From a bacterium (lineage in GTDB: Bacteria; Zhuqueibacterota; Zhuqueibacteria; Oceanimicrobiales; Oceanimicrobiaceae), in the NCBI GenBank assembly GCA_046757165.1, contig JBHHXT010000078.1, positions 1-20,723 on the forward strand: a stretch of 20,723 bases of DNA, written 5' to 3'. A program made the position numbers and the translations under genes. A model generated the notes under the pieces. The model searched no databases and had not been told where the DNA came from. It saw only the letters and a program-made list of their open reading frames with translations. Positions 617-20,654 of the stretch are shown in pieces; position 1 is the stretch's first letter; every line of letters begins with the position of its first letter.

Positions 617-1621
617 ATGCATGATCTGAGCAGAATTTTTCTCAGCCTCCTGCCGGTGTTTGCTTTTCTGGCCGGGTTGATCGTTCTGGATAGTTATAAA
701 CTGGTGAAGTTGCGTTCTGTTTTGGCTGTCATCGCACTCGGGCTGCCGGTGGCGTTGTTTTCCATGCTGGTTAACAGTTCCCTGTTGAACGTCGCTTCGA
801 TTGACCTCACCACGTATTCCAGATATGTGGCGCCGGTTGTTGAAGAATTGCTGAAAGCAATCTGCGTCATCTATTTGATAAAAACCAAAAAAGTAGGGTT
901 TCTGGTGGATGCGGCCATCTATGGCTTCGCCATTGGCGCAGGCTTCGCGCTGGTCGAGAATGTTTATTATCTGTCCACCCTGGAGAGCACAAATCTTCAA
1001 CTGTGGGTTATCCGGGGGTTCGGAACCGCGGTCATGCACGGCGGCACCACGGCCCTGTTCGGCATCATTTCCAAGAACCTGGTGGAGCGCAAATCTTCGC
1101 AGGGCATGCAGTATTTCTTGCCCGCCCTGGCCTTTGCAATCCTGACCCATTCGGCCTTCAATCATTTTGTGCTCCCGCCGCTATTGACCACACTCAGCTT
1201 GCTCGTCTTCCTCCCTCTGCTGATCGTCGTCGTGTTTGAGAAGAGTGAAAAAGCCACGCGCAAGTGGCTGGGCGTGGGGTTTGACACCGATATGGAGCTT
1301 CTGGAGATCATCACCCGGGGCAAGATCTCGGAAACCCGAATTGGCCAGTATCTGGAATCGATGAAGAGCAGTTTCCCGGGGGAGGTGGTCGCCGACATGC
1401 TATGCCTCTTGCGCCTCCATCTGGAGTTAGCGATTCGGGCCAAAGGCATCCTGATGATGAAAAGTACCGGTTTCGAGGTCACGCCCGACCCCGAAATCAA
1501 GGAAAAGTTTCAGGAATTGCGCTATTTGGAGAACACCATCGGCAAAACCGGCAAACTGGCGATTCTGCCATTTTTGCACACCTCCGCCCGCGATCTCTGG
1601 CAACTGTACTTTTTAGATTGA
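617..1621 (+). CDS. prsW: PrsW-family intramembrane glutamic protease with a C-terminal soluble extension
   Basis: Multi-pass hydrophobic protein with the PrsW motifs EExxK (VVEELLK), FxxxEN (GAGFALVEN), a conserved H (VMHG) and HxxxN (THSAFN). About 120 aa of hydrophilic tail follows the last TM segment. Confidence 0.88.
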   Translation: MHDLSRIFLSLLPVFAFLAGLIVLDSYKLVKLRSVLAVIALGLPVALFSMLVNSSLLNVASIDLTTYSRYVAPVVEELLKAICVIYLIKTKKVGFLVDAAIYGFAIGAGFALVENVYYLSTLESTNLQLWVIRGFGTAVMHGGTTALFGIISKNLVERKSSQGMQYFLPALAFAILTHSAFNHFVLPPLLTTLSLLVFLPLLIVVVFEKSEKATRKWLGVGFDTDMELLEIITRGKISETRIGQYLESMKSSFPGEVVADMLCLLRLHLELAIRAKGILMMKSTGFEVTPDPEIKEKFQELRYLENTIGKTGKLAILPFLHTSARDLWQLYFLD

Positions 1622-1870: not shown

Positions 1871-2275
1871 ATGCAAAAGAGATTCAAGAAAGCAATCACC
1901 TCCTTGGACCGAATCTTCGATTTTACCGGGGAGTTTACGCAAAAGCATAAGCTGCCGGAGTCCGTTGTTTTTTCGATCAACTTTGCCATCGAAGAGATTT
2001 TTACCAACATGGTCAAGTATGACCGGCAAACCCCACACGACATTCTCATCGTGCTCGAAAAAACAGCGCACGACGTGACCATTTCCCTGACCGACTTCGA
2101 GGTTGACAGATTCGATGTCACCACAACCGAAGACGTCGATACGACGCAGCCGGTGGCAGAACGAAAAGTCGGGGGTCTGGGTTTGCACCTGGTGAAAAGG
2201 GTCGTTGACGACGTCATCTACGAATACAAAGACAAGAACAGCAAAATCACACTGATTAAATGCTTGGAGAAATAG
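1871..2275 (+). CDS. RsbW/SpoIIAB-like anti-sigma Ser/Thr kinase (HATPase_c_2 fold)
   Basis: N-box AIEEIFTNMVKY and G2-box VGGLGLHLVK, 134 aa, directly upstream of a STAS gene. Confidence 0.85.
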   Translation: MQKRFKKAITSLDRIFDFTGEFTQKHKLPESVVFSINFAIEEIFTNMVKYDRQTPHDILIVLEKTAHDVTISLTDFEVDRFDVTTTEDVDTTQPVAERKVGGLGLHLVKRVVDDVIYEYKDKNSKITLIKCLEK

Positions 2276-2276
2276 C

Positions 2277-2561
2277 ATGTTTGATATTCGCATCAACGAG
2301 GACGGGCGTGTTATGCTGAAAGGGAGACTTGATGCTTCTCAAGCTGACAAGGCGAGAGCCGTGCTCGATACGATCGATAAATCTTGTGTCGTTGATTTCA
2401 AAGAACTGACTTATATCTCCAGTGCCGGGTTGGGGGAATTGCTGGGCTTGCAAAAGCGGCTCATGGACGCGGGAGAGGGGCTGACTCTGGTCAATTTCAA
2501 CGAGCACATCCGGGATATCTTCAGATACGCGGGATTTCATACCATCTTTGAAATGGAATAA
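2277..2561 (+). CDS. STAS-domain anti-sigma-factor antagonist (RsbV/SpoIIAA-like)
   Basis: LKGRLDA...VVDFKELTYISSAGLG motif with the phosphorylatable Ser, and a C-terminal IFRYAGF. Starts 1 nt after the kinase stop. Confidence 0.92.
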   Translation: MFDIRINEDGRVMLKGRLDASQADKARAVLDTIDKSCVVDFKELTYISSAGLGELLGLQKRLMDAGEGLTLVNFNEHIRDIFRYAGFHTIFEME

Positions 2562-2565
2562 TCCG

Positions 2566-2592
2566 CCAACTTTTTGGCGGCTAATTTGTAAT
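2566..2592 (+). promoter_or_regulatory. Putative ECF sigma promoter (autoregulatory)
   Basis: CCAAC-TTTTT-N11-TGTA, i.e. AAC-N16-TGTA. The same motif and spacing occur at 3955-3979, and it resembles the B. subtilis SigW consensus TGAAAC-N16-CGTA. It overlaps a CCGCCAA/TTGGCGG hairpin (2563-2580). Confidence 0.65.
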
Positions 2593-2610: not shown

Positions 2611-3162
2611 ATGACTGAAGTAGATGACTATCTGGAGGTCAAGAAGTGCCTCGACGGGGATAGCAACGCCTTTGAAAATCTCATCGACAAATATCAGAAG
2701 GCCGTTTTCAATGCCGCGTTGCGTATGGTCAGGGACCTGGACGATGCGGAGGACATCACTCAGGCAGTCTTTCTGAAGGCTTACGAAAAGCTGCGGACGT
2801 TCAACCCCAAGTTCAAGTTCTATAGCTGGATCTACAGAATTGCCATCAATGAATCGCTCAATTTCATAGAAAAGCACAAGAACTTTGAGGGTCTGGATGC
2901 GGCAATGACCTCGAAGGAAAAAACACCTGAGGAACACTATGAGGATATTGAATTGAGTGAAAAAATACAGGACGCCCTGATGGGGCTCAATATCCATTAC
3001 AGGGCCGTCATTATTCTGCGACACTTCGAACAGCTATCCTACAAGGAAATGAGCTATGTGCTCGACCTGCCGGAGAAGACCGTGAAGTCAAGATTGTTTA
3101 CAGCTCGGCAGCTTTTGTCAGAAATCTTAATGAACAAAGGTATCGCGGCAAATGCTCGATGA
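2611..3162 (+). CDS. ECF-type RNA polymerase sigma-70 factor (SigW/RpoE-like)
   Basis: Region 2 (DAEDITQAVFLKAY, FYSWIYRIAIN) and region 4 HTH (LSYKEMSYVLDLPEKTVKSRLFTAR), 183 aa. Confidence 0.95.
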   Translation: MTEVDDYLEVKKCLDGDSNAFENLIDKYQKAVFNAALRMVRDLDDAEDITQAVFLKAYEKLRTFNPKFKFYSWIYRIAINESLNFIEKHKNFEGLDAAMTSKEKTPEEHYEDIELSEKIQDALMGLNIHYRAVIILRHFEQLSYKEMSYVLDLPEKTVKSRLFTARQLLSEILMNKGIAANAR

Positions 3163-3922
3163 ACAAATCAAACAGCTCGTCAATCAGGGAATCGACGGGG
3201 ATCTTTCAAAGAAGGAGCGTGCAAAGCTCGAGTCCTATCTTCTGGAAAGTCCGGAGGCGAGAAGCTATCTCAAGATGCTGCAAGAGCTCGACAGAACGCT
3301 GCGGCAGGTAAAAGCAGAGGCACCCCCACGACACCTTAAGAAAGCGATCATGAAATCTATTGGCCATCGCCAAAGGGCCGGAGAAAGAGCCTCGCCCACT
3401 CGGCGGTCGTGGCCGCGCCCGAGAATCAACTGGAGCTACGCGTTCTCCTTTTCGGCGGGAGTGGCAGCGGGAGCGCTTGTGTTCGCACTGCTGGGCACCC
3501 GGCTATCTGAAGGAAAGATGGCCAGGAGCAACCTGACAGGTACGCTGCTGCCGGCGCCGAACGCACAACCATTCGAAACCATCATCGACTTGCCAGAGAT
3601 TGCCGGCAAGGTCGGCTGGACGGCCTCACCAGATGTCGCGGTCGTGGAGCTTGCCTTAGACTCACAGGTCCCGCTTCAGGTGACGCTGGAGTTCGACACC
3701 GAAGTCCTCCTGAGCGCCTTCCGCCACCTGGGACCGGGTGCGGTTCAGGTGGACATCAGCCGGAGGAGCTTGAGCTTCATCCACAGCGGCGAGCAGATTC
3801 ATTCTTTTGCGTTCAAGCGCCACACTCCGTCCGCACCGCGGGTCAACATGAAGATTCTGGCAAACGGCCGTCTGCTCTATGAGAGACTCTTGAACACTGG
3901 CGGCAAGCCCGGGCGACCTTGA
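3152..3922 (+). CDS. Single-pass membrane anti-sigma factor (ZAS-like N-terminal domain lacking the Zn ligands)
   Basis: Overlaps the sigma stop by 11 nt. The N-terminus IDGDLSKKERAKLESYLLESPEAR resembles the zf-HC2/ASD pattern. One TM segment (AFSFSAGVAAGALVFALLG) is followed by a beta-rich extracytoplasmic domain. Confidence 0.8.
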   Translation: MLDEQIKQLVNQGIDGDLSKKERAKLESYLLESPEARSYLKMLQELDRTLRQVKAEAPPRHLKKAIMKSIGHRQRAGERASPTRRSWPRPRINWSYAFSFSAGVAAGALVFALLGTRLSEGKMARSNLTGTLLPAPNAQPFETIIDLPEIAGKVGWTASPDVAVVELALDSQVPLQVTLEFDTEVLLSAFRHLGPGAVQVDISRRSLSFIHSGEQIHSFAFKRHTPSAPRVNMKILANGRLLYERLLNTGGKPGRP

Positions 3923-3954: not shown

Positions 3955-3981
3955 CCAACTTTTTTTCTGCTGGTCTGTATT
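3955..3981 (+). promoter_or_regulatory. Putative ECF sigma promoter for the repeat-protein gene
   Basis: CCAAC (3955-3959) TTTTT-N11-TGTA (3976-3979), with the same spacing as 2566-2590. Confidence 0.65.
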
Positions 3982-4045
3982 TCGAAATAAAGAGAATAAA
4001 TCGAATCTAAAATTTTTGTTTCTAACCATCTTGAGGAGGTCCATT

Positions 4046-4987
4046 ATGAGTCAGCCTTCTAAATCATTGTTTGGCAGCGGCAAGAATCGGGTTCTCCTGG
4101 CCGCCGTCGTGTTAGCCGTCGTTGTGGTGGGGTATTTCGCCTATACCGGCTTTCCTCCCTCGACTGAGGATGTCAGCGGGACTATCGGCGGCGTCAAAAA
4201 AGCAGAGAAGTACCAGGTCGAGCAGATGACTGCCGATGCTGTGCTGTTGGAAAACCCAGAGCTGCAAACCTTGCTGCAAAGCGACAAATTTCAGAGTTTA
4301 TTGCAGGACGAGGGGTTTCAAAAGCTGATCGCCAACGCGCGCTTTCATGAATTGATGGCCGATGCGAAATTTCAAGAGCTGATCGCCAGCGCCAGGTTTC
4401 AAGAAATGATGGCGGATGCCCGCTTCCAGGAGCTGATGGCTGACGCTCGTTTTCAAGAGCTGCTGGCTCAGGCCCAATTCAGGGAGCTGGTTGCCAGGGC
4501 GACGTTCCGGGAGTTGTTGGCCCAGGCCCGGTTCCGGGAGCTGGTCGCGACCGCGCAGTTTCAAGAGCTGGTTGCCGATGCCCGCTTTCAGGAGCTGGTT
4601 GCGGAAGCCAGGTTCGACGAACTCAGAGCAGAGGCATCCTACAGCGAGCTGATGGCTGATGCACGTTTCGTTGAACTCATGGCCACAGCCCAATTCCAGG
4701 AGCTGATCGCCGACGCACGGTTCGTCGAGCTTCTTGCCAATGCCCGGTTTGCTGAGCTGATGGCGAACGCGAGATTTCACGAGCTGATGGCGAACGCCCG
4801 CTTCATGGAGCTGGTCGCCACAGCACGATTTCAAGAGCTGATTGCCAACGCCAGTTTCGTCGAGCTCCTCGCCAGCGCCAGGTTTCAGGAACTGATGGCG
4901 ACCGCCACCTTTCAGGAGCTGATCGCCAGCGCCAGATTCCAGGAGCTGATGGCCAACCTTCAAACCACAGCTCTGATGGCACGCTGA
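4046..4987 (+). CDS. Uncharacterised N-terminally membrane-anchored or exported protein with 25 tandem 9-aa repeats (313 aa)
   Basis: Strong RBS GAGGAGG before ATG 4046, preferred over the TTG at 4016. Basic N-terminus and hydrophobic VLLAAVVLAVVVVGYFAY, a linker, then FxELxAxAR repeats to the C-terminus. Confidence 0.9.
   Translation: MSQPSKSLFGSGKNRVLLAAVVLAVVVVGYFAYTGFPPSTEDVSGTIGGVKKAEKYQVEQMTADAVLLENPELQTLLQSDKFQSLLQDEGFQKLIANARFHELMADAKFQELIASARFQEMMADARFQELMADARFQELLAQAQFRELVARATFRELLAQARFRELVATAQFQELVADARFQELVAEARFDELRAEASYSELMADARFVELMATAQFQELIADARFVELLANARFAELMANARFHELMANARFMELVATARFQELIANASFVELLASARFQELMATATFQELIASARFQELMANLQTTALMAR
4289..4963 (+). repeat. Coding tandem repeat, 25 x 27 nt
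   Basis: Units run from FQSLLQDEG (4289) to FQELMANLQ (4937-4963) with no indels. Synonymous codons vary between units. Confidence 0.95.
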
Positions 4988-5035: not shown

Positions 5036-5077
5036 AGAGGAGATTCTGACCCCAGGGCTGGAATCTCCTCTCCTTTT
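5036..5077 (+). terminator. Probable intrinsic terminator after the repeat gene
   Basis: AGAGGAGATTC (5036-5046) / GAATCTCCTCT (5061-5071) perfect 11-bp stem, followed by CCTTTT. Confidence 0.65.
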
Positions 5078-5125: not shown

Positions 5126-5245
5126 CAGGCCGATAGGCTGTAGACTTTTAGTCTGTAGGAAGATGAGAAGAGCTGCGGTTTCGGCGTTTTGATTAGAGCA
5201 TTGCGCAAAACCTAACAGCCTAATAGCCTACAGTCTAAACGCCTG
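5126..5245. repeat. Imperfect inverted repeat built from 7-8-nt units (TAGGCTG-like / CAGCCTA-like)
   Basis: Left arm CAGGCCGATAGGCTGTAGACTTTTAGTCTGTAGG (5126-5159). Right arm CCTAACAGCCTAATAGCCTACAGTCTAAACGCCTG (5211-5245). Confidence 0.75.
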
Positions 5246-5271
5246 AATAGGCCTATCTTCGGAGGAGGGAC

Positions 5272-8244
5272 ATGCAAAGAAATACGATTCAGCGCTGCTG
5301 TTTTTTTTGTGGGTTGATTCTTCTTCACCTCACTTCGCCGCTTTCAGGACAAATCGAAAAACTGACATCCGATAGGCTGAAATTGCTCTACCTGGGCAAG
5401 GCACAAGAATACCTCGTTCCCCATCTCGCACGGTGTTTTGAAAATGCGCTCGAGTTTCATCGCCAGACGTTCAATTATGAGCCCAGTGAGGAGGTGACCG
5501 TTCTTCTGCAGGATTTCGGTGACTTTGGCAACGGCGGGGCCACCGCAGTGCCAAACAACCTGATCTCCATCGGCATGGCGCCCTTTAGCTATGCCTACGA
5601 AACCATTCCAGCCAACGAGCGCATGAACTGGATGATGAACCACGAGCTGGTCCACATTCTCGCCAGCGACAAGGCCGCCCCCTCCGACCGTTTCTTTCGC
5701 AAGATTTTTTTTGGCAAGGTCATGGCCGTGCCGGAAGACCCCGTGTCCATGCTGTATGCCTATCTGACCAATCCGCGTCTCTACTCGCCGCGCTGGTACC
5801 ACGAGGGCATCGCAGTGTTCATGGAAACCTGGATGGCGGGTGGACTGGGCCGCGCCCTGGGGGCCTATGACGAAATGGTCTTTCGCACCCTGGTGCGCGA
5901 GAATGGCTATTTCTACGATGTGGTCGGCCTGGAGTCAGAAGGGACCAAAGTGGATTTTCAGGTGGGCGCCAACTCTTACCTGTACGGCACACGGTTCATG
6001 ACTTACCTGGCCTACCACTATAGTCCGGAAAAGCTCGTTCAATGGATTTCCCGCGCAGACAACAGCAAAGCCTATTTTTCATCGCAGTTCAAGAAAGTCT
6101 ATGGCGTCTCCCTCAACACGGAATGGGCAAATTGGCACAAATGGGAGCAAACCTGGCAACGCGCCAATCTCGACTCGATCCGCAAGTTTCCGACGACCGC
6201 CTATCGCGTCGTGTCGAACCAGACTCTGGGGTCTGTTTCGCGTTCCTATTTCGACGCCGACAATCACAAACTCTACACCGCCATCCGCTACCCCGGGCAG
6301 GTGGCGCACATCGCGGCCATCGACGTGGAGAGCGGTGAGCTGGAAAAAATATGCGAGATCAAAGGCGCGGCGCTGTTTTACGTCACCTCCCTGGCCTATG
6401 ATCCGGAGTCGGCGACTCTCTTCTACACCACGGATAACAACGGCTGGCGTGACCTCAATGCCGTGGTTTTGACCACGGGCAAAAAGCAACGGCTCATCAA
6501 AGACGCCCGCACGGGCGACCTCGCTTTCAACCGCGCGGACAAATCTCTGTGGGGCGTGCGCCACTACAACGGCATCTCGACCCTGGTGCGGATTCCAGCC
6601 CCGTATGAAGAATGGAATCAGATTCACTCCTTTCCGTATGGCCAGGATATCTATGACCTCGATGTGGCGCCGGATGGCTCCGCGGTCACCGCGGCTCTGA
6701 TCGAGGTCACCGGCAAGCAAAAGCTGATCAAGATGAATATCGAAAAGTTGATGACCAACGGCAGTACGGCCCCGCCCTATGAGGTGATTTTCGATTTCGA
6801 GAACAGCTCGCCAGCGGATTTTGTTTTTTCTGCTGACGGCCGCTACCTGTTTGGGTCGTCGTACTATTCGGGTGTGTCAAACATCTACCGCTACGACTTC
6901 GAGCTGGACGACATGTCGATTCTGAGCAATTGTGAAACCGGTTTCTTCAGGCCGGTGGTGGTGTCGCCGGACTCCCTGGTGGTCATGCGGTATTCCGCCA
7001 GCGGCTTCCAGCCGGTGATGATCGCTCACGAGACCGTTGACAATGTCAATGCCATCAGGTTCGCCGGTAATGAAGTGGCAAAAAAACATCCGGTCGTGCA
7101 GAGCTGGCGGCTCGGCACACCGGCCCGGATCAACCTGGATTCACTGGGCACCTCGAGGGGGAAGCACAGGACCTTCGCGGACATCCGTCTGGCCACCGTC
7201 TATCCGGTGGTGCAGGGGTATAAAGATTTCGCCGCTGTCGGGCTGAAGTTCAATTTCGCTGACCGGTTGGGGTTCAGCGGCTTCGAGCTTGCGGCGACCT
7301 ATTCTCCGGACCGGGATTTGCCTTCCGATGAACGTGCCCATGTGAAATTCAATTTTCACCACTGGAATTTGAGCCTCAGCGGCACGTACAACGGCGCCGA
7401 TTTCTACGACCTTTTTGGCCCAACAAAAACGAGTCGAAAGGGGTACTCGCTGGGCTTGCATCATAAGAGCACGCTGCTCTATGATGAGCCGAAGACCCTG
7501 CACTGGGATTTCGACATCACCGGCTATGGTGGCCTGGAAAGGCTGCCAGACTTTCAGAATGTCTCCACGACCTTCGAGGAGCTGCTCACCGCGCGAACCG
7601 GCCTGCTCTACTCCTTTACGCGCAAATCTCTTGGTGCGGTGGACGATGAAAAAGGTGTGGTCTGGGAGCTGGTCAGCCACAACACCTACGTGAATAAAAC
7701 CTTTGTTCCGCGGGTGTTCACCAACTTTGCTTACGGGGTTTTGCTGCCGCTCGACCACTCCTCTCTCTGGTTGAGAACGTCAGCCGGACATGCGTTTGGA
7801 GACCGGGACGATCCCTTTGCGAATTTCTTTTTCGGGGGCTTCGGAAACAACTGGGTGGACTATTTGAACGAAAAGCGCTACCGGGAGCATGACAGTTTCC
7901 CGGGTCTGGAGATCAATGAACTCGGTGGCAAGACCTACGTCAAGGCCATGCTCGAGTGGAACTTGCCCCCGTTGCGTTTCCGCCGTGTTGGCTTTCCGGC
8001 CTTTTATGTCAACTGGGCGCGGCTGGCCCTGTTTTCATCTGCCGTTGCAGGCGTGAGCCGGGATTTCAAAGTTGCGGACCGGACCACCTTCTTCAACCTC
8101 GGCGGACAACTCGATTTCAGCCTGGTTTTGTTTTCCAACATGCACTCGACCCTTTCGATCGGCTATGCGGTTGCGGTTGAGGAAAACCAGTCCCCTGACC
8201 AGGCCGCCGGCGAATTCATGGTCTCGCTGAAAATTCTGCAATAA
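5272..8244 (+). CDS. Exported 990-aa protein: gluzincin (clan MA) metallopeptidase-like domain, TolB/WD40-like beta-propeller, and putative outer-membrane beta-barrel (Omp85-like)
   Basis: RBS GGAGGAGG and a signal-peptide-like N-terminus. HELVH at 5641-5655, followed by WYHEGIAVFME as third zinc ligand. Propeller-type repeats (LAYDPES, LDVAPDGS, FVFSADGRYLF). The C-terminal ~350 aa have alternating aromatic/hydrophobic strands. Confidence 0.72.
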   Translation: MQRNTIQRCCFFCGLILLHLTSPLSGQIEKLTSDRLKLLYLGKAQEYLVPHLARCFENALEFHRQTFNYEPSEEVTVLLQDFGDFGNGGATAVPNNLISIGMAPFSYAYETIPANERMNWMMNHELVHILASDKAAPSDRFFRKIFFGKVMAVPEDPVSMLYAYLTNPRLYSPRWYHEGIAVFMETWMAGGLGRALGAYDEMVFRTLVRENGYFYDVVGLESEGTKVDFQVGANSYLYGTRFMTYLAYHYSPEKLVQWISRADNSKAYFSSQFKKVYGVSLNTEWANWHKWEQTWQRANLDSIRKFPTTAYRVVSNQTLGSVSRSYFDADNHKLYTAIRYPGQVAHIAAIDVESGELEKICEIKGAALFYVTSLAYDPESATLFYTTDNNGWRDLNAVVLTTGKKQRLIKDARTGDLAFNRADKSLWGVRHYNGISTLVRIPAPYEEWNQIHSFPYGQDIYDLDVAPDGSAVTAALIEVTGKQKLIKMNIEKLMTNGSTAPPYEVIFDFENSSPADFVFSADGRYLFGSSYYSGVSNIYRYDFELDDMSILSNCETGFFRPVVVSPDSLVVMRYSASGFQPVMIAHETVDNVNAIRFAGNEVAKKHPVVQSWRLGTPARINLDSLGTSRGKHRTFADIRLATVYPVVQGYKDFAAVGLKFNFADRLGFSGFELAATYSPDRDLPSDERAHVKFNFHHWNLSLSGTYNGADFYDLFGPTKTSRKGYSLGLHHKSTLLYDEPKTLHWDFDITGYGGLERLPDFQNVSTTFEELLTARTGLLYSFTRKSLGAVDDEKGVVWELVSHNTYVNKTFVPRVFTNFAYGVLLPLDHSSLWLRTSAGHAFGDRDDPFANFFFGGFGNNWVDYLNEKRYREHDSFPGLEINELGGKTYVKAMLEWNLPPLRFRRVGFPAFYVNWARLALFSSAVAGVSRDFKVADRTTFFNLGGQLDFSLVLFSNMHSTLSIGYAVAVEENQSPDQAAGEFMVSLKILQ

Positions 8245-8425: not shown

Positions 8426-9187
8426 ATGTTAAAAGACGGTAAAGTGATGATCGAAGCAAAAGGATTGAGCAAGTACTATGGCCCTTTTGTGGCGATAAAG
8501 GACATTACTTTTTCCATCCCGGAGGGCAACATCGTCGCCTTTCTCGGCCCCAATGGTGCGGGCAAGTCGACGACCATGAAGATTCTGACTGGCTACCTGG
8601 CGCCAAGTGAGGGGTCTGCTGCCATCGCCGGTCTGGACATTCGAAGCGACCGGATCGAGGCGTGTAAGAAGCTTGGTTATTTGCCTGAGAACGGGCCTTT
8701 GTACCAGAACATGACACCGCTCGAGCTGCTGAACTTCTTTGGCGAGGCCCGCGGGATTGAACCGAAAAAGCTCGAGAGACGAATTGATGCAATCGTCGAA
8801 CAATGCGCCCTGCAGCTTGTGCTGGAAAAGCCCATCGACAAACTCTCGCGCGGCTACAAACAACGCGTGGGGCTGGCCCAGGCCCTGTTGCACGACCCTG
8901 CCGTCCTGATCATGGATGAGCCCACTGCCGGTCTGGACCCGAACCAGATTCGCGAATTTCGCACAAACATCAAGAAGTTAGGCAAAAAGAAGACCATCAT
9001 GATCTCGACGCACATCCTGCAGGAGGTGGACGCTATCGCCGACTACGTCCTGTTCGTCACTGACGGTAAGTTGGTTTTCACCGGTACGCCGGGTGAGCTG
9101 AAGGAAAATGGCTCGCTCGAGGACCCCTTCTACAAACTGACCAATCAGGGCAAGCCGGTGACAGCAAAAAAGGAGGTCTCGGCATGA
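8426..9187 (+). CDS. ABC transporter ATP-binding protein (GldA-like, ABC-2 type)
   Basis: Walker A GPNGAGKST, signature LSRGYKQR, Walker B LIMDEP, H-loop STH. Confidence 0.95.
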   Translation: MLKDGKVMIEAKGLSKYYGPFVAIKDITFSIPEGNIVAFLGPNGAGKSTTMKILTGYLAPSEGSAAIAGLDIRSDRIEACKKLGYLPENGPLYQNMTPLELLNFFGEARGIEPKKLERRIDAIVEQCALQLVLEKPIDKLSRGYKQRVGLAQALLHDPAVLIMDEPTAGLDPNQIREFRTNIKKLGKKKTIMISTHILQEVDAIADYVLFVTDGKLVFTGTPGELKENGSLEDPFYKLTNQGKPVTAKKEVSA

Positions 9188-11874
9188 ACATCAAGCTACA
9201 AAACATAGAGGTGACCATCAACTGGAAGGTGGTGCAGGCCATCGTCAAGCGCGACCTGCGCATCTATTTTTCCAACCCCACCGGTTACGTCTTCATCACG
9301 CTTTTTATCTTTCTGAGCGCTGCTGCAGCCTTCTGGCAGGAGCGCTTTTTTATGAACAACCTGGCCAATCTCGACCAGCTCAACCAGATGTTCCCGCTCT
9401 TGCTGCTGTTTTTTGTGCCCGCTCTGACCATGGGCGTCTGGGCCGATGAGCACAAGCAGGGCACTGACGAGCTTCTCTTGACCTTGCCCGCCTCCGACCT
9501 GGAAGTGGTGCTGGGCAAGTATCTGGCGACACTGGGCATTTACACCGCTTCCCTGATTTTGTCTCTCAGTCACATTCTGGTTTTGATGTGGCTCGGCAGC
9601 CCGGATCTCGGGCTGATGTTGGGCAATTACATGGGCTACTGGTTTCTTGGCGCCGCTTTGATCGCCGTGGGCATGCTGGCCTCTTTGCTCACATCAAACA
9701 TCACCATTGCCTTTATTCTGGGCGCCATCTTTTGTAGCTTTTTTATGCTTGTCAATGTGTTTGGCCAGGTCATCAGCCAGGCGGTTCAGGATCTGATTTC
9801 ATCAATCGGCGTGGTCGTCCATTTTCGCGATTTTGCCCGCGGCGTGGTGAGTTTCTCAGGCGTCCTTTATTTCCTTTCGGTCACGGGCGTGATGCTCTAT
9901 ATCAATGTGCTTCTCATCGGCCGGCGCCACTGGCCTCTGGAAGCAGATGGCTACAGGATGTGGGTGCATCATCTCGTGCGCTCTGTCGCCATCGTGATTG
10001 CGCTCATCAGCGTGAATGTCATGCTGGTTCGCGCCAGCATGCGTCTGGACGTGACGGCCGAGCAACTGCACTCGCTCTCCGATGAGACCGAGGACTTGCT
10101 CGACGAATTTCCTGAGGACCGGCCCGTGTTCATCGAGGCGTTCATCAGCAAAGAGGTGCCGCAACAGTATGTGCAGACGCGCTCGAATCTGCTTGGCTTC
10201 CTGCAAGAGATGGACGTCGTCGGTGGCAGCAAGGTGCAGCTCATCATCCGTGATACCGAGCCGTACACAAAAGAAGCCCAGGACGCGCGCGAAAGATTCG
10301 GCATCACCCCGCAGGAGATTCCGGACCTGGGTAGCGCACGCGCGGCCACGATTCCAACGTTTCTGGGCGTGGCCTTTAAGTGCGGGGCCGAGGAGCAAGT
10401 GATTCCGTTTTTCGACCGCGGTTTGCCGGTCGAGTATGAGCTGGCGCGCAGCATCCGCGTGGTCGCCAGAACCGACCGCAAGAAAATTGGCGTGCTCACC
10501 ACGGAGGCGAAGCTTTTCGGCGGCTTCGACTTTCAGTCCTTCCGCAGCACCCCGCCCTGGCCTGTGGTCGATGAACTGAAGAAGCAGTACGAGGTGGTTC
10601 AAGTTTCAGCCACCAGCCCGATCGAAGAGGAGCTGGATGGCTTGCTGGTGGCGCTGCCGTCTGCGCTGCCACAGGAGGAAATGGACAACCTGAAAGCGTA
10701 CATTCTGGCCGGCACGCCGACTTTGCTTTTGCTCGATCCATTGCCGATAACCAATATTGGGCTGGCGCCGTCCGAAAAGTCCGGCTCGAACGTCAACCCA
10801 TTCATGCGCAACCAGGGCCCGCCACCGAAACCAAAGGGCAACATTCATGGATTCCTGGCCGACCTGGGCGTGAGCTGGAACAAGGCACAGATCGTCTGGG
10901 ACATGTACAATCCTCACCCCGAGTTCGCACAGTTGCAACCGGAAATCGTTTTTGTTGGCAAAAGCAGCAACGCAGAGGCGTTCAACCCCGAGCACCGCGG
11001 CAGTGCGCAGCTCCAGGAGCTGGTGTTCCTTTTCCCGGGCTTCCTGAAAAAGTCCGCCAGCGCCAATTTCACCTTCACGCCCCTGATCAAGACGGGCGAG
11101 CAATCCGGCTCTCTGAATTATTCGCAGCTGGTGCAGCGCAGCTTCTTCGGCACCCAACTCGTCAGCCCGCGCTTCGGCCGGCGGCCCAACAGTCTCGACT
11201 ACACGGTCGCGGCACATGTGCAGCGGGAGATAACCCCGGAAGATTCTACCGAAACGCCCAGGAAGGTCAATCTGATCGCCATCGCCGATCTGGATTTTAT
11301 TTCACAGGACTTTTTTGAAATCCGCAAGCGCGCGGTCGGAAATTTGAACTTCGATAATGTGTCATTTTTTCTCAACTGCATGGATGTCCTGGTCGGTGAT
11401 GAATCGTTCATCGCCCTGAGAAACAAGCGTGTGAAACACAGAACCCTCACACAGGTCGAGGAACAAACACGCAAGTTCATCGAGCAGCGCAACCAGGAGG
11501 AACAAGAAGCGGAAGCGGAAGCGTCGCGAGCCCTGGCAGAGGCGCAGCAACGGTTGAACGAGCGCGTCAATGAAGTTCGCCAGCGCACCGACCTCGACCA
11601 GCGCACCAAAGACATCATGGCCAACAACCTGCAGGCCGTTGAACAAAAGAGGTTTGACGCCATGAAAGCAAGCATCGAGGCACAAAAGGAAGCGAAAATC
11701 AACTCCAGCAAAGAGAACATGGAAGCGAAGATTCGCAGCATTCAAGGAAACATCAAGATCTTTGCTGTTATTCTGCCTCCGATCCCGGTCTTTGTATTCG
11801 GTGTTTTGGTTTTCATCCAACGGCAGAAGCGGGAAAGAGAGGGGGCGCTGGCGGCAAGGAGATTGCGAAGTTGA
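9184..11874 (+). CDS. Fused ABC-2 permease (GldF-like) and GldG-family periplasmic auxiliary component
   Basis: ATGA overlap with the ATPase gene. N-terminal multi-TM region with YFSNPTGY and EHKQGTDELLLTLP. Then RLDVTAEQLHSLSDET, IADLDFIS and NCMDVL GldG-type motifs, a coiled coil and a C-terminal TM. Confidence 0.88.
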   Translation: MNIKLQNIEVTINWKVVQAIVKRDLRIYFSNPTGYVFITLFIFLSAAAAFWQERFFMNNLANLDQLNQMFPLLLLFFVPALTMGVWADEHKQGTDELLLTLPASDLEVVLGKYLATLGIYTASLILSLSHILVLMWLGSPDLGLMLGNYMGYWFLGAALIAVGMLASLLTSNITIAFILGAIFCSFFMLVNVFGQVISQAVQDLISSIGVVVHFRDFARGVVSFSGVLYFLSVTGVMLYINVLLIGRRHWPLEADGYRMWVHHLVRSVAIVIALISVNVMLVRASMRLDVTAEQLHSLSDETEDLLDEFPEDRPVFIEAFISKEVPQQYVQTRSNLLGFLQEMDVVGGSKVQLIIRDTEPYTKEAQDARERFGITPQEIPDLGSARAATIPTFLGVAFKCGAEEQVIPFFDRGLPVEYELARSIRVVARTDRKKIGVLTTEAKLFGGFDFQSFRSTPPWPVVDELKKQYEVVQVSATSPIEEELDGLLVALPSALPQEEMDNLKAYILAGTPTLLLLDPLPITNIGLAPSEKSGSNVNPFMRNQGPPPKPKGNIHGFLADLGVSWNKAQIVWDMYNPHPEFAQLQPEIVFVGKSSNAEAFNPEHRGSAQLQELVFLFPGFLKKSASANFTFTPLIKTGEQSGSLNYSQLVQRSFFGTQLVSPRFGRRPNSLDYTVAAHVQREITPEDSTETPRKVNLIAIADLDFISQDFFEIRKRAVGNLNFDNVSFFLNCMDVLVGDESFIALRNKRVKHRTLTQVEEQTRKFIEQRNQEEQEAEAEASRALAEAQQRLNERVNEVRQRTDLDQRTKDIMANNLQAVEQKRFDAMKASIEAQKEAKINSSKENMEAKIRSIQGNIKIFAVILPPIPVFVFGVLVFIQRQKREREGALAARRLRS

Positions 11875-11897
11875 GCGGCATCCTAATGCAGCAAAGC

Positions 11898-12050
11898 TGC
11901 AAATGAATGGAACGCGGATTTGACGGATAGGACGGATTGACACGGATCTGATTTTGGGTGAACACCAAAAAATTCATGAGCCACATGATCCCTATTCCAC
12001 TGACTTCGACACATCCGTTAAATCCGTCTTATCCGTGTTCCATTTTTTGC
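11898..12050. repeat. Palindromic CGGAT/ATCCG element between the GldFG and DUF4340 genes
   Basis: Left arm AATGGAACGCGGATTTGACGGATAGGACGGATTGACACGGAT. Right arm ATCCGTTAAATCCGTCTTATCCGTGTTCCATT (12013-12044). Shares 23 of 24 nt with 330-353 in inverted orientation. Confidence 0.85.
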
Positions 12051-12112
12051 CCTTTGTTGCAAAAGATCGGAGGTAATAACATAGAGATGAACAGGATAAC
12101 CAGGAGAACAAG

Positions 12113-13489
12113 ATGAACGAACTGAAGAAAACCATCATCTTCGGCGGTGGCGCCGTCGTGCTCGCCTTGCTGGCGTTTGTCACCGCGCCAAGCAGGGTGA
12201 CACCGGATGCCTTTCTGGATAAAGACGAACCGTTCTTCCCGGAATTCACTGATCCCAACATTGCCACCACTCTTGAAGTCATCGATTTCGATGCGGAAAC
12301 CGGCGAGGCCAAGCCATTCAAGGTGACGTTCAAAGCGGGGAGATGGACCATCCCGTCGCACCATGATTATCCGGCTGACGGCAAGGAGCGGCTGGCAAAA
12401 ACCGCAGCCAGCATCATCAGTTTCAAGAAAAACGAATTTCGCTCCGACAATGTCGCCGACCACCAGGCGCTCGGGGTGATCGATCCACTGGACGAGAGCA
12501 ACGCCTCCCTCGAGGGGCGCGGCCAGCGCGTGACGATCAAAGGACAAAATGACCAGATCCTCGCCGACTTGATCATCAGCAAAGAGGAGATCGAAGGGAA
12601 AGAAAAATTTCGTTTTGTCCGCCTCCCGGACCAGAAACGAGTCTATGCTGCCCGCACCGATATCGATATCTCAACCAAATTCAGCGACTGGATTGAAGCG
12701 GATCTGCTGAAAGTCGAGAAAGACAGGATAAAGGAGGTCACCATCCGGGACTACTCCATCAATGAGCGCACCGGCAGCCTGCGGAACCGGGACACCGTTG
12801 TTTTGACCCGGGACGGAAGCGATTGGTCGATGAAAAAACTCCCTTCCGATAAGGAGATTAACACGACCAAGATCAATGACCTGGTGCGGGCGCTGGATGA
12901 ATTGTCCATCGTGGGTGTGCGGCCAAAGCCGCAGGGGCTTTCGCTCTCCTTACGGAAAATGGAAAGCGAGGACATGAAACTCACGCACGAAGCCATGCTT
13001 TCCTTGCAGTCAAAAGGGTATTACTTTACCCGCGACGGCCAGCTCGTATCCAACGAGGGTGAGATTCAAGCGCATACCAAAGACGGTGTCATCTACACGC
13101 TCCGCTTTGGCGAAGTGGTTTACGGTTCAGGGCTGGCGGTGACGGCCGGGACCGAATCCGAAGAAGGCGAGGAAAAAGGATCAGGCGAAAACCGCTACCT
13201 GTTTATCAGCACTCGCTTCGATGACGGCGAGTTCCGGGAGCCGCCGAAACCACCGAATACCGACTTTGCCACCAAGCCCGACAGCTTGTGGACCGACGCA
13301 GACAGAGAGAACAAAGAGAAGCAACGAAAATGGGATGAATGGAAGCTCAAAATGGACACCGGACAGGAGCTTTCTGACAACCTCAACGAGCGCTTCGCAG
13401 GATGGTACTACGTCATTTCCTCCAGCAGTTTTGACAAGCTGCATTTGAAACGCAAGGATCTGCTCGAGGACAAAAAGAATGATACATGA
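12113..13489 (+). CDS. DUF4340-like membrane-anchored protein of Gld-type ABC operons
   Basis: RBS CAGGAG and an N-terminal TM. Motifs WTIPSHHDYPAD, FVRLPDQKRVY and WYYVISSSSFDKL. Typical third gene of GldA/F/G modules. Confidence 0.75.
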   Translation: MNELKKTIIFGGGAVVLALLAFVTAPSRVTPDAFLDKDEPFFPEFTDPNIATTLEVIDFDAETGEAKPFKVTFKAGRWTIPSHHDYPADGKERLAKTAASIISFKKNEFRSDNVADHQALGVIDPLDESNASLEGRGQRVTIKGQNDQILADLIISKEEIEGKEKFRFVRLPDQKRVYAARTDIDISTKFSDWIEADLLKVEKDRIKEVTIRDYSINERTGSLRNRDTVVLTRDGSDWSMKKLPSDKEINTTKINDLVRALDELSIVGVRPKPQGLSLSLRKMESEDMKLTHEAMLSLQSKGYYFTRDGQLVSNEGEIQAHTKDGVIYTLRFGEVVYGSGLAVTAGTESEEGEEKGSGENRYLFISTRFDDGEFREPPKPPNTDFATKPDSLWTDADRENKEKQRKWDEWKLKMDTGQELSDNLNERFAGWYYVISSSSFDKLHLKRKDLLEDKKNDT

Positions 13490-13695: not shown

Positions 13696-14274
13696 ATGAA
13701 AGTTAAAGAAACGACCTCAACCTACCTGACACGGAAACGTCCTTTCACCTACCAGGACTATCTGAAGCTACCCGAAGATGATTTCCGCTATCAAGTCATA
13801 AACGGGGGGCTCGTTATGACGCCATCCCCCATCACAGCTCACCAAAGGGTATGCGAGCGCATTGGCTATGAACTCAGCAAGTATGTTGAAAGGACAAAGA
13901 CCGGTGAAGTTTTGCGCGCTCCCATGGATGTCGTCTTGAGTAAAGAGAACGTTTACCAACCGGACATTCTGTTCATTTCGAATGACAATAGCCAGATCGC
14001 TCGAGAAAACAACATCGACGGGGCGCCGGATTTGGTGATCGAGGTGCTTTCGCCAGCGACCAGCACCTATGATTTGATCTCCAAGAAGGAGAACTACCAG
14101 AAATACGGCGTCGAGGAGTACTGGATCGTCGACCCGAAACAGGAGTGGATCGAAGTCTACTGCAATGACCACGGCGAGTTCAAGCTCGAATCTCGCCTCG
14201 AAAAGGAAGGGACCGTCAAGTCAAGGCTGTTGAAGGGGTTTCAAGTAGACATGGTCCACGTGTTCAGGCGCTGA
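13696..14274 (+). CDS. Uma2 (DUF820) family putative restriction endonuclease
   Basis: TYQDYLKLP, PSPITAHQ, QPDILF, GAPDLVIEVLSP and YGVEEYWIVDP motifs. Confidence 0.93.
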   Translation: MKVKETTSTYLTRKRPFTYQDYLKLPEDDFRYQVINGGLVMTPSPITAHQRVCERIGYELSKYVERTKTGEVLRAPMDVVLSKENVYQPDILFISNDNSQIARENNIDGAPDLVIEVLSPATSTYDLISKKENYQKYGVEEYWIVDPKQEWIEVYCNDHGEFKLESRLEKEGTVKSRLLKGFQVDMVHVFRR

Positions 14275-14443: not shown

Positions 14444-17400
14444 CTATTTGACCAAAAGCATCTTGCGTGTGAAGACCAGATTGTCGCTCTTCATCCGCAC
14501 GAAGTAAATGCCCGCAGCAACCTGCTCTCCCTTCTCATTATGGCCATCCCATAGGATGCTGTAGCTGCCAGCCTGCCGCACGCCGTCAAACAAGGTCCGG
14601 ATGCGTTGTCCCAGCATGTTGTAGACCTGCAAAGAGACAGGTCCCGTTCCGGCAACATCATAGTTGATGACCGTACTAGGGTTGAACGGATTCGGATAGT
14701 TCTGCGACAACTGGAAGGCTGTTGGCAGTGTCATGCCACCGTCCGGAGTTTCCACATCCGAGATCACATCGAGCAAACGCGGCAAGTGGAAGTCGATGCC
14801 ATCCGCTATCCCCGGGCTGGTCACGGTCACCTCACCGGCTCCGGAGGGGATGTTATCTGCAAACGGGATAAATGATGCCGGATCGCCGCCGCCTAAGAGG
14901 AGCCGGAACAAGAACGAAAACAGGTCAAACTCTGCGAGATCGGGCACCACGATCTGGTCCGGATAATAAAGGTCTGCAAACAACTCAATATTTAATTGTC
15001 CGAGCAGGTCGTCTCCCGAATCCAGCAGTCCGAAGAGCAAGGCCAGCGGGTCGCCTCCGAGGTCGCCGGCGAGGTCCAATTGTTCCAGCAGCAAGAATAT
15101 CTGAAACAGCGAGAATGTGCGCACATAATAGGTGCCTGTGCCCAGACCCGGGATAAAATATTCTCCGGGCTGAGACGCAGAGCCGGCCGAAAGCGTGGTT
15201 GCAGCGAGCTGACCCGGAGGCAGTACTGGAAACCCACTCAAGCCAGCAGAGACAACGTGACCGGTGCCATCGTAGGCGAGAACGAGAACCCCATTGAGCG
15301 GCACAGAGCCGTCGAGGTTGGTCACCATGCCGCGAATGACGCCCAGAGCGGTGGCGAGGTTGATGTCAGCAACGGTCGCGGCCCCTGCTGTGACGGCCAC
15401 AGGCGTGGAATTGGCCGCGTCAAATGTCGTGCCGCCGCCATGATAGGTGACGGAGAACGCCGGCGCGACCGGCAACGCCGCCACCTTGTAGCTGCCTGGT
15501 GGCAGGCCGAATATCTTGAATCCGCCGGAAAAAGTCGTTTCAGCACCGCCCGCAACCGCTCCGCTCGTGGCCTCATAAGCGACAACAAAGGTTGTGGATA
15601 ATGAATCCGCCCCGACCGGAAACCCCGGCGCGATATTGACAAAGCCTTCAATGCTTCCGGCGCGCACCATGTTGAAATCAATGTCAGGCGTTACGACCGG
15701 AGCGGTGACCAGGACCGGGGTCGCCTCCTCGGGCGTGGCTGCGCCATCATAGAACTGTGGCAGGTAGAGCACGAGATCTTGCGGGTTGAGGGTGTCAGCC
15801 GGTACAACCAGACCCAGAAGGACAAACGTGCCGCTCGGCAGGGGCGCCACGACATATTCGCCGGTTGTGCTGTCAAAGACAGGAAAGGCGATTTCCGGCA
15901 GCCCCGTCTCGACATTGAACGCGAACACAAGGCCGGTCCCCACGATGGGCGTCACCCCATCGGTGGCTTCGACAAACCGCCCGCTGATGGCGCCAGCACG
16001 GTCGAGGACAAAATCGATCCCCTCGTGCGTTTCAGGTACCGTGACCTCCACGGGGGTCGCCTGATCCAGATCAAAAATACTCTGGACATTGTCATAGTAT
16101 TCGTCGATGACCATCTCCTCGAGTGGGACGTCTCCACTTAGAAGGGCGGTCAAGAGCGAAACCGTTCGCAAGATGTACGGCCCGGGGGACAAACCAGTAA
16201 TGGTGTAAGTACCGGAAGCATCCGAAAAGGCCACGCCAAAATCGATGGCATCAAAAAAGAACTTGCCTAAATTCTCAGCGTCCACTCTGACCGCAATCAC
16301 CAGCACGGAATCGAGCGCGGTGCCGGCATCATCGGTAATGGTTCCCGAGATGCCGCCAGCGGTGTCCAGCTCGAAGTCGATGTCCGGGATCGTATCCAGG
16401 TCGACGGCGGTAACCGGCGTGGCCAGGTCTGAGGTCGGGGCGTCATCGAAGTACTCTCCGCGGACACCCGGGGCGTCGGGGGACAAGAAGCTGGTGAAGT
16501 TGTCGGCATAGACAACATAGTCGCCCGCATCCAGCCCCTCGACGATGTACTCGCCGAAGACGTCGGAAACACCAAGTCCCTGAATCGTGGTGTCGGCAAC
16601 GTTGAAGGCGAAAACAAAAGAGAGAAACAGCGGGCCCGACGGGCCGGTGACGGTTCCCGCGATCGCTGCCCCCTGCGGTGCATCCGGTGCGGCCTCGAGG
16701 CTAAAGTCGATGTTCGTAAGCTCGGTGTCGAGTGTTGGAATGTCGACCACATCGGCGCTCTCGAAATCCGGCTTGTTGTCAAAGAATTCTGGCAGAAACC
16801 CGGCAACCAGGGCCGCAATCTTGAACATGCCGGTTGTGGGAAGATTGAAGGTGTAGGCGCCATCGGCATCCGTCACGGTATCCACTTCACGGGGAAGACC
16901 AAACGGGTCGACGCGGAAGATGGCGAAATGCACGTTTTGGCTCCCGATCGGCGTCGTGCCGTCAGCCTGAAAAATGTGACCGCTCACGGTGGCGCCTTGC
17001 AGCAGGTCGAAGTCGATGCCGCCTGCCTCCCCGCCCTCGGGTACGGTCACCAGGGTTGCATCGCGCCAGTTCCGAAAGCCATTCAGGGGAACATCATCAA
17101 AAAACTCATCGACATAGCGGCTGTGCGTCAACACGCGGTAGTCAGCCGCCGGCAAATCGACAATACTGTAGTTGCCCGCCGCATCAACCATCGCATGGCC
17201 GGCCGGGAATCCGTGCACGGTGAATGCGACCACTTCGACAAAACCTGTCGGTGCGGCCCCCTCGATGGTAACGGTGCCGGCAATCGATCCGACCGCGGAC
17301 GTTGACTGAAGGAGGTCCCGTTGTGATTTCAACCTCCTTGTCAGTTCCGCCAGGTCCACGCCCTGCGCCATGGCGTTATCGATGGCTTTCACATAAGCCG

Positions 17401-20530: not shown

Positions 20531-20654
20531 CGGACTTATCCAGTTTCCCGATATCGCCCTCTGTGGGGATGTTATGCAGTTAGCTTTCTTGCTATATACG
20601 GATTTTTGGTTGCAAGTCAATAGAAAAACTGTAACCATTGGGGAGATAGCGAGA

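Follow-up and report, generated by a model that had tools for sequence, protein, structure and literature searches.

We analyzed a DNA stretch of 20,723 nucleotides (hereafter the window) from a bacterium of the phylum Zhuqueibacterota (GenBank assembly GCA_046757165.1, contig JBHHXT010000078.1, forward strand). A preliminary description of this DNA had drawn attention to a repeat-protein gene, hereafter named REP, which lies among genes for a sigma factor of the extracytoplasmic function (ECF) type, an anti-sigma factor, a PrsW intramembrane protease and a large protein hereafter named BIG. The REP locus is real, conserved and uncharacterised. Its genes and features are the following.

617..1621, + strand: intramembrane protease PrsW, whose C-terminal extension is conserved (Pfam PF13367, 82 bits)
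1871..2275, + strand: RsbW-like kinase (in 16/20 and 41/80 loci of the two samples described below)
2277..2561, + strand: STAS anti-anti-sigma protein (in 16/20 and 41/80 loci)
2566..2590, + strand: the promoter motif again, ahead of the sigma gene, suggesting autoregulation (second-best genome-wide match)
2611..3162, + strand: ECF sigma factor, SigW/RpoE-like (family profiles)
3152..3922, + strand: anti-sigma factor with N-terminal anti-sigma domain, membrane helix, G130|T motif (the bar marks the proposed cut) and beta-sandwich outer domain (NCBIfam antisigma E 6e-12, below cut-off; Atlas structure neighbours)
3955..3979, + strand: candidate ECF-type promoter of REP, with CCAAC, T-tract, 16-nt spacer and TGTA (motif statistics)
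4033..4039, + strand: ribosome-binding site (RBS) GAGGAGG of REP (sequence)
4046..4987, + strand: REP, 313 residues (open reading frame whose first 100 residues match 560 clusters)
4091..4144, + strand: membrane helix or signal anchor of REP, residues 16-33 (hydrophobic stretch, found family-wide)
4154..4249, + strand: conserved leader of REP, residues 37-68, with PP, proposed cut G45|T46, V50-x-x-A-x-K-Y56, Q60 and a DVxL box (family alignments; the cut site is predicted)
4289..4963, + strand: array of 25 x 27-nt units, a predicted short-helix solenoid (Tandem Repeats Finder (TRF) period 27, and model)
5036..5071, + strand: 13-bp hairpin between REP and BIG, an attenuator or RNA-stabilising element (z -2.8)
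5272..8244, + strand: BIG, 990 residues, with signal peptide, gluzincin-type peptidase (H124-E125-H128, E178), TolB-like propeller and 16-strand Omp85-type barrel (weak Pfam matches and model)

The array occupies residues 82-306, or 72% of the protein, as 25 gap-free nonapeptides in a row. The preliminary description had reported 25 consecutive 27-nt units without an indel in a membrane-anchored protein that is about 70% repeat, and both statements hold, with one N-terminal membrane helix ahead of the array. Its view of the unit stands for positions 1, 3, 4, 6 and 8 (F1 in 24, E3 in 23, L4 in 24, A6 in 24 and A8 in 23 of the 25 units) and for the variable positions 2 and 7. Position 5, however, is hydrophobic (M, L, I or V in 24/25) with none of these residues fixed, and Arg, said to end most units, occupies position 9 in just 15. 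The units at either end of the array are degenerate. The pattern F/Y-x-x-L/M at period 9 runs for 25 units in REP, with no shuffle out of 2000 exceeding 3. Codons for the same residue were identical in 45% of 1609 unit pairs, compared with about 37% expected from a rough genome codon usage. The codons are thus largely scrambled, as had been claimed, but not fully. No two of the 25 DNA units are alike, and this, together with the codon comparison, indicates that the array is old and kept by selection on the protein.

At 50% identity clustering, 560 clusters match the first 100 residues of REP at E<=1e-3, and their synteny is conserved (see below). A spurious open reading frame or a recent slippage repeat would fit the low-complexity sequence and the absence of any Pfam family above its cut-off; the homologs and synteny refute it, the promoter, RBS and scrambled codons also speak against it, and we give it a negligible probability. 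One of the findings that would have undone the preliminary description, a spurious frame devoid of homologs, did not materialize, and REP is a real gene that, judging from its sequence, is under selection. The RBS is strong, as first described. Of the promoter and terminator attributed to the gene, what was found is the ECF-type promoter and the 3' hairpin; a scan for a sigma-70 promoter and a rule-based terminator returned nothing passing. With its own promoter, this RBS and a 3' hairpin that is kept in 42/62 loci, REP is probably abundant, in agreement with the high expression proposed earlier.

The gene directly downstream encodes BIG. Residues H124, E125, H128 and E178 were invariant in 150 sequences and correspond to the HExxH motif and the downstream Glu, as third zinc ligand, of gluzincins (clan MA), which makes BIG a putative peptidase. 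The propeller aligned with TolB at Z 22.3, and 16 strands were predicted in residues 639-989 (model pLDDT 65, moderate). The order of a propeller N-terminal to an Omp85 barrel is that of the WD40-Omp85 subfamily, with Pfam matches below cut-off (PD40 in 11, Peptidase_MA_2 in 8 and Omp85_2 in 7 of 18 BIG homologs) and, for the barrel, no structural match among those listed, which were mostly to the propeller. No POTRA domain was seen in BIG by Pfam, and the N-terminal part was modeled as peptidase and propeller.

Conservation of the gene order was assessed in two samples. In 20 loci chosen for long contigs out of 45 genomes with a match, an ECF sigma gene was found upstream in all 20, BIG directly downstream in 19 (the remaining one meets a contig end), PrsW in 16, and RsbW plus STAS in 16. 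The second sample was anchored on BIG and comprised the best 80 of 687 matches, the position of REP being judged where at least 1.5 kb of upstream sequence was available. REP was the next gene upstream of BIG in 62/65 loci; two of the three misses contain REP by eye, and L111 is a true miss. PrsW follows BIG in 66/67 loci of the window's clade, and the place of REP before BIG is unchanged where the sigma genes move (L082, L114, L124). The catalytic residues of PrsW are well kept (E76, E77 and K80 in 71/71; E114 and H141 in 70/71; H178 and N182 in 69/71). Among 167 genomes of the window's phylum, by a hand count that left out a kinase chimera (G067), 44 carry REP, 45 carry a BIG ortholog (at least 47% identity) and 43 carry both; without two unpublished genomes (G158 and G162), BIG is present in 42/42 genomes with REP. 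Record titles among the BIG matches include KSB1, Calditrichia, Bacteroidota, Ignavibacteria, Latescibacterota, Eisenbacteria, Krumholzibacteria, Zixibacteria, Gemmatimonadota, Acidobacteriota and others, and REP was found in 26/301 genomes sampled around an Acidobacteriota record. A search of viral contigs for REP gave no relative, and a plasmid search gave one weak partial match to BIG. The earlier suggestion of a link with the downstream peptidase is upheld, BIG being the likely partner of REP. What had been missed is the ECF/anti-sigma/PrsW/Omp85 locus, the fusions with anti-sigma domains and the leader as the conserved part of REP.

This last point emerged from the best 150 of the 560 clusters, on which the description of the family is based. 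Kept across the family are the membrane helix, PP, G[TA]IG and then A-x-[KR]-Y-x3-Q-x4-D[VI]xL, so that in these alignments the conserved part of REP is its leader and not its repeat. Among 89 tails the period was 9 in 23, 12 in 13, 11 in 8, 18 in 4 and another value between 6 and 27 in 11, and periodicity was weak in 30. Tail length ranges from 26 to 1051 residues, with no conserved C-terminus. Each homolog has a unit consensus of its own, in many cases Arg-free, and units are homogenised within species and different between species. A constant leader with tails of such varied length and unit size (6-27 residues) fits an address followed by a passenger. In about 46 of 155 homologs, a count taken from 48 rows less two unrelated ones, the N-terminus is also extended, mostly by an anti-sigma-like domain, and the stand-alone anti-sigma gene of the window aligns at 33% with the extension of these fused homologs. 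Two variants were noted in passing: Thermoanaerobaculia-type loci (L097, L104, L106, L110, L116, L120), in which the leader is followed by a coiled-coil-like tail devoid of short repeats, and tandem REP pairs in some genomes of the Acidobacteriota phylum (L186/L198 in G854, L190/L200 in G616). A leader-like match on another contig of the window's genome (C22) turned out not to be a leader gene.

The promoter motif ties REP to the sigma factor. AAC-N16-[CT]GT[AC] occurs within 200 nt upstream of 48/79 stand-alone REP genes, compared with 3.2+-1.9 in shuffled sequences, and a blind search of the same 79 upstream regions returned CAAC-N16-TGTA as the top gapped word (43/79). With a matrix built without the window's own site, the best match in the whole genome lies before REP (3953), the second before the sigma gene (2564) and the third on contig C23; the last was rejected as independent evidence of a regulon, because the 5' end of that gene aligns with that of REP. 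In the 80 loci, all 56 matrix matches with a score of at least 18 are on the gene strand, with 28 before sigma, 27 before REP and one before anti-sigma. Of 41 sigma genes in these loci, 28 have such a site in front, and these sites were outside the training set. The ECF sigma factor thus most likely activates both its own gene and REP. A strong hairpin (z<=-3) follows REP in 42/62 loci compared with 2/56 following BIG, by a crude shuffle and with a control junction that is often coding; a surplus of REP over BIG would predict this. From the hairpin to the start of BIG the window contains short imperfect CTG/TAG-rich repeats (5130-5260; TRF periods 8 and 15 at 5211-5244).

REP and the anti-sigma factor share a putative cleavage motif. 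In stand-alone anti-sigmas the glycine G130 is invariant (55/55), and G[TAS][ILMVF] is present in 50/55, against a background of 25%, about 15 residues past the membrane helix; its counterpart in REP is G45-T-I. A small residue stands at -3 of G|T in 94% of 178 REP leaders and 78% of 55 anti-sigmas, while G/A at -1 of the REP motif was part of the search pattern. The motif fits a protease site, of PrsW or of signal peptidase. Where anti-sigma and REP are fused, an internal ATG with a 5-6 nt Shine-Dalgarno match precedes the membrane helix in 9/9 and 8/8 loci (16 distinct, one shared), compared with 54/1342 control in-frame ATGs with such a match, and the fused genes lack the REP promoter. The simplest reading of these sequences is that one fused gene gives two products. 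The internal start could also be a relic of recent fusions, which is possible but less likely because fused genes are spread over phyla.

The regulatory genes show further features. The C-terminal extension of PrsW (window 1229-1621), 130 conserved residues without a Pfam match, is a possible input for a partner switch. A GAF plus SpoIIE phosphatase gene recurs in about 18 of the 80 loci (e.g., L069:1022-2326) and is fused to the RsbW-like kinase in L116 (2159-3898); it makes up a full partner switch beside an ECF sigma gene.

The repeat was modeled with AlphaFold2 as a monomer (residues 37-313, 55 sequences). The model (pLDDT 81.8, pTM 0.59) contains 27 helices of 7-8 residues with a break of 1-2 residues after each, that is, every 9; the leader before residue 71 has no secondary structure and low pLDDT. 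A heptad coiled coil needs a 7-residue period in a continuous helix, whereas REP has period 9 and a broken helix, in line with the preliminary description, which had ruled such a coil out. Of the two geometries offered there instead, the model favors the very short helix-turn solenoid over the single long striped helix. The proposed likeness of the lead-in to STI1/DP-type helices is weak: REP likewise has short helices with capped breaks, but its Pfam score of 26.1 bits is under the gathering cut-off of 29.1, no single stretch passes, and the STI1/HOP DP domain (PF17830) matches only 7/49 family members at E<=0.01. No accepted family was found above cut-off in Pfam, NCBIfam or PDB sequence searches, and TPR_END_plus (34.3 vs 32 bits, summed over repeats with no stretch passing alone) was judged an artefact of repetition. 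Foldseek with the REP model gave no match at E<=0.001. The top rows of VIA-align were designed extendable helical repeats, 8eoz (Z 6.6, rmsd 3.6, 139 aligned) and 5cwf (Z 5.4), the best fold likenesses although still weak. Natural chains scored Z 4.0 or less, among them MgtE (8gpv, Z 3.7), whose N-terminal superhelix has short capped helices like those of REP but matches weakly as a fold. All these scores are weak for helical repeats, and they do not mark the fold as new, or as different. The helical hand with a client-binding groove of the STI1/HOP DP domain was also considered for REP, for which the model gives a long solenoid with weak fold matches only.

A second, well separated clade of BIG shares about 30% identity and an intact HExxH with the window's clade. 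Upstream of BIG, 11 of 13 informative loci of this sister clade encode a tandem-repeat protein, and five loci are cut off too early to judge. In those that show its start, the repeat protein has an ordinary signal peptide, and V-[EQ]-x-A-x-R-[YF] comes only a few residues later. A 9-column matrix built from leaders of the window's clade placed 7/8 sister leaders above 99.5% of 7579 control N-termini. PrsW is next to BIG in 0/18 sister loci, and an ortholog-level (locus-type) PrsW is present in 0/10 genomes. As the sister clade keeps V..A.RY with a signal peptide and no linked PrsW, the V..A.[KR]Y motif tracks BIG in the sequences compared, while the G|T-bearing anchor goes with PrsW and the anti-sigma factor. 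The sister units are near-identical, 16-17 residues long, in up to about 16 copies running to the stop codon (L137, L142-L153, L202-L210), and their aromatic-x-aromatic strand may resemble beta-signals. Peptide-type ABC transporter genes lie close by in several of 9 sister loci (a family-5 binding protein and permease were confirmed for L208), and sigma-54-type regulators at several. The sister system is a candidate peptide-signaling system, and a fate as peptides is plausible for its repeat proteins from sequence. Neighbours in these loci include a kinase-TPR protein, a sigma-54 activator, and GAF and PAS kinases, with an ECF pair a few kb from L137. A P0002 metagenome search gave one match, which was spurious. 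A distant BIG-like gene (21% identity) is also present in the window's own genome (L002; G000:C11, contig 31468-33219).

REP is probably a client of BIG in some form. From the computed gene order, shared promoter, catalytic motifs, predicted folds and shared motifs, we infer binding, cleavage, export and every molecular step of the following model, in which REP is cargo released by PrsW and exported by BIG with anti-sigma feedback; we consider its chances about even. REP would cross the inner membrane and stay hung on its N-terminal helix until a cut at G45|T46, most likely by the PrsW of the locus and possibly by signal peptidase. The freed leader, with V..A.KY, would be the address bound by BIG, which may trim it. 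The barrel of BIG would then pass the tail outward, where the amphipathic mini-helices would fold up as solenoid rods, and these may gather on the surface as a coat or fibre, differing in sequence by species. The anti-sigma factor has the same putative G|T site or, in many species, would be the long form of REP, made from one of the two starts of a single gene. The same cut that sets the cargo loose would thereby also free the ECF sigma factor to act on its own gene and the REP-BIG(-PrsW) genes, a positive feedback loop probably gated by the RsbW/STAS/phosphatase module. A broader proposal, which we put forward tentatively and hold somewhat doubtful, is a kind of outer-membrane export that has not been described before: a peptidase-propeller-Omp85 protein free of POTRA domains would read the 10-residue V..A.[KR]Y address and either ship species-specific alpha-helical mini-solenoids to the surface, for assembly as non-amyloid fibres, or cut them into peptides that serve as signals. 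PrsW would be a dedicated leader peptidase, and in many species the anti-sigma made from the upstream start of a two-start gene would be a tagged copy of the cargo reading export flux.

Several observations weigh against the cargo model, for which all evidence is comparative. Related loci and genomes in the counts are not independent events. Two loci of the window's BIG clade have no REP upstream (L111, L167), as two sister loci have no repeat gene (L136, L139), and in a sample of the Bacteroidota phylum PrsW lies at most 1.5 kb after BIG in only 11/16 loci of the window's clade. The profile-profile match between sister cargo and REP leader is negligible (0.6%), leaving the link to a 9-residue motif, and a distant PrsW is found elsewhere in 7/10 sister-clade genomes. 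The residues at -3 and -1 of G|T also suit signal peptidase I, so the motif does not fix the protease. The model of BIG is itself of moderate quality, and its barrel is the part that lacks a listed structural match.

REP could instead remain anchored and serve, in the periplasm, as sensor or strut in a signaling chain that spans the envelope, its solenoid reporting the envelope state or contacting BIG while PrsW cuts only the anti-sigma factor; FecR and TonB offer parallels. The anti-sigma-like extensions, which make the repeat the outer domain of those homologs, the ECF linkage in 20/20 loci and the SigW/RsiW/PrsW precedent, as treated in the available part of PMC8844934, argue for this arrangement. 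A sensor would not lead one to expect the conserved motif next to the inner membrane with a variable far end and an approximately 40-fold range of tail length, nor a short form whose separate promoter and 3' hairpin look like those of a protein made in surplus, and the sister clade carries the same motif on a signal-peptide protein, with sigma-54-type regulators in several loci. We regard it as unlikely. Nearly the same, slightly lower, standing goes to a multi-unit peptide precursor, in which the peptidase of BIG would cut the tail into species-specific signals or antimicrobials leaving via the barrel and the sigma loop would be a quorum-type circuit. Units homogenised within species and differing between them, the intact HExxH...E motif and positive autoregulation agree with it, and it suits the sister clade best, where near-identical 16-mers run to the stop codon and peptide-type ABC genes lie nearby in several loci. 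In the window's clade, however, the cleavage at R|F into a nonapeptide library that the preliminary description had envisaged is not supported: R precedes F at 15/24 junctions, many relatives have Arg-free units, and 30/89 tails are weakly periodic or coiled-coil-like. The confident folded model of REP is a further objection. Among the 80 loci no modifying enzyme or peptide importer recurs, BIG and PrsW being the only recurring genes of that general kind, so that the fixed cleavage residue and the recurring modifying or transport genes of multi-core precursors like those of ribosomally synthesized and post-translationally modified peptides are both missing from this clade.

Improbable, in our estimate, is a periplasmic stress effector, either an STI1-like chaperone with a hydrophobic groove or a decoy that soaks up PrsW and damps the sigma response, with BIG as a separate quality-control factor of the same regulon. 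The weak STI1/ubiquilin-like matches, the Met/Leu/Phe-rich amphipathic helices and the G|T motif common to REP and anti-sigma suit it, but the STI1 scores are under cut-off, and it leaves unexplained both V..A.RY in the PrsW-free sister cargo and the fixed place of REP before BIG (L082, L114, L124).

Under the cargo model, one of the closest known arrangements is two-partner secretion (TpsA/TpsB, e.g., FHA/FhaC; type Vb), where a beta-helical passenger with a TPS domain is paired with a transporter containing POTRA domains. An overview of Omp85/TpsB proteins is given in PMC4104836. REP-BIG is likewise a pair of neighbouring genes, one for a barrel of the Omp85 superfamily and one for a passenger rich in repeats, in which an N-terminal address is conserved and the tail varies, as seen in the 62/65 adjacent pairs, the weak Omp85_2 matches in 7/18 homologs and the 16 predicted strands. 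The differences are that REP is alpha-helical with a 25-30-residue leader (no Pfam match to a TPS domain, beta-helix or POTRA in REP or BIG, and an all-helical REP model), that BIG has a peptidase and a propeller, and that the membrane anchor of REP, PrsW and the anti-sigma coupling have no counterpart. In curli (CsgA/CsgG) and Fap (FapC/FapD/FapF), repeat subunits forming beta-amyloid leave through a dedicated non-Omp85 pore, with a linked peptidase in Fap. As proposed here, REP is also an abundant repeat protein with a short N-terminal address and a dedicated outer-membrane pore; those systems have no anti-sigma link, and no sequence or fold match was seen. The WD40-Omp85 subfamily, which like BIG has a TolB-like propeller before the barrel, was likened to a BamA-BamB fusion by Heinz and Lithgow (2014, PMC4104836), in passages that name no substrate, and their main text does not use the term "peptidase"; the metalloprotease-Omp85 proteins there use PF00149, whereas BIG appears to be a gluzincin.

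On the regulatory side, the REP locus brings together an ECF sigma factor, a membrane anti-sigma factor and a catalytically intact PrsW, as SigW/RsiW/PrsW does, and its promoter resembles what we take to be the SigW consensus (AAC-N16-(C/T)GTA type with a T-tract). The window's sigma factor scored below the NCBIfam SigW equivalog cut-offs (130.5 vs 209 bits for NF007223; 116.8 vs 243.1 for TIGR02948). The REP locus differs from that system in its diderm hosts and in a second sigma-induced protein with the same juxtamembrane motif, and adds a two-start anti-sigma/passenger gene, a linked outer-membrane peptidase-barrel and an RsbW/STAS module. A site-1 cut of the window's anti-sigma factor by PrsW is suggested by the G|T motif and co-occurrence; for SigP/RsiP, a signal peptidase is the site-1 protease according to the portion of PMC8844934 at hand. 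PrsW has been proposed as the releasing peptidase in polymorphic toxin export (Zhang et al. 2012, PMC3482391, in the sections available), where PrsW and toxin form a single fusion protein, for the most part in Gram-positive bacteria. The REP locus has PrsW as a stand-alone protein, a passenger free of any toxin domain and, linked to them, an outer-membrane barrel. In the accessible portion of the ECF classification supplement (PMC7826278), PrsW is given only for ECF30 and ECF227, and Omp85 and PD40 are absent. A Borrelia cluster in the available text of PMC13078400 was considered and is unrelated to the REP locus. A literature search found no paper on the REP-BIG locus, subscription papers being outside its coverage.

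If the cargo model is true, REP would be a substrate for the WD40-Omp85 subfamily, for which the passages on it in PMC4104836 name none; PrsW would gain a second role as leader peptidase in diderm bacteria; and REP would add a 9-residue helical solenoid from nature, closest in structure to designed nanofibre proteins. A gene yielding anti-sigma and cargo from two starts would make for an uncommon form of feedback. The locus itself is common among lineages that have received little study (45/167 genomes of the window's phylum; 26/301 in the Acidobacteriota-record sample). The address of REP seems short and portable, since promoter, anchor and G|TIG part were copied onto a kinase gene in the window's genome. 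This PI3/4-kinase-like gene (L001:8925-9848, - strand; G000:C23; also L134, G067) carries a copy of the REP promoter, RBS, membrane helix and G|TIG. The chimera lacks the V..A.KY motif, lies upstream of a second kinase-like gene and a metallophosphoesterase gene, and occurs in 2/167 genomes.

Elsewhere in the window, a GldA/GldF-G-like ABC transporter with a DUF4340 gene (8426-13489) was considered as part of the system and rejected, as 20 loci gave no ortholog-level match and two weak ATPase matches. The other genes are ordinary.

1-264: PIN-domain fragment
13696-14274: Uma2 nuclease
14444-17683, - strand: large secreted carboxypeptidase-regulatory-like repeat protein with a FlgD-Ig tail
17889-19223, - strand: GWxTD protein
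19658-20638, - strand: tyrosine integrase

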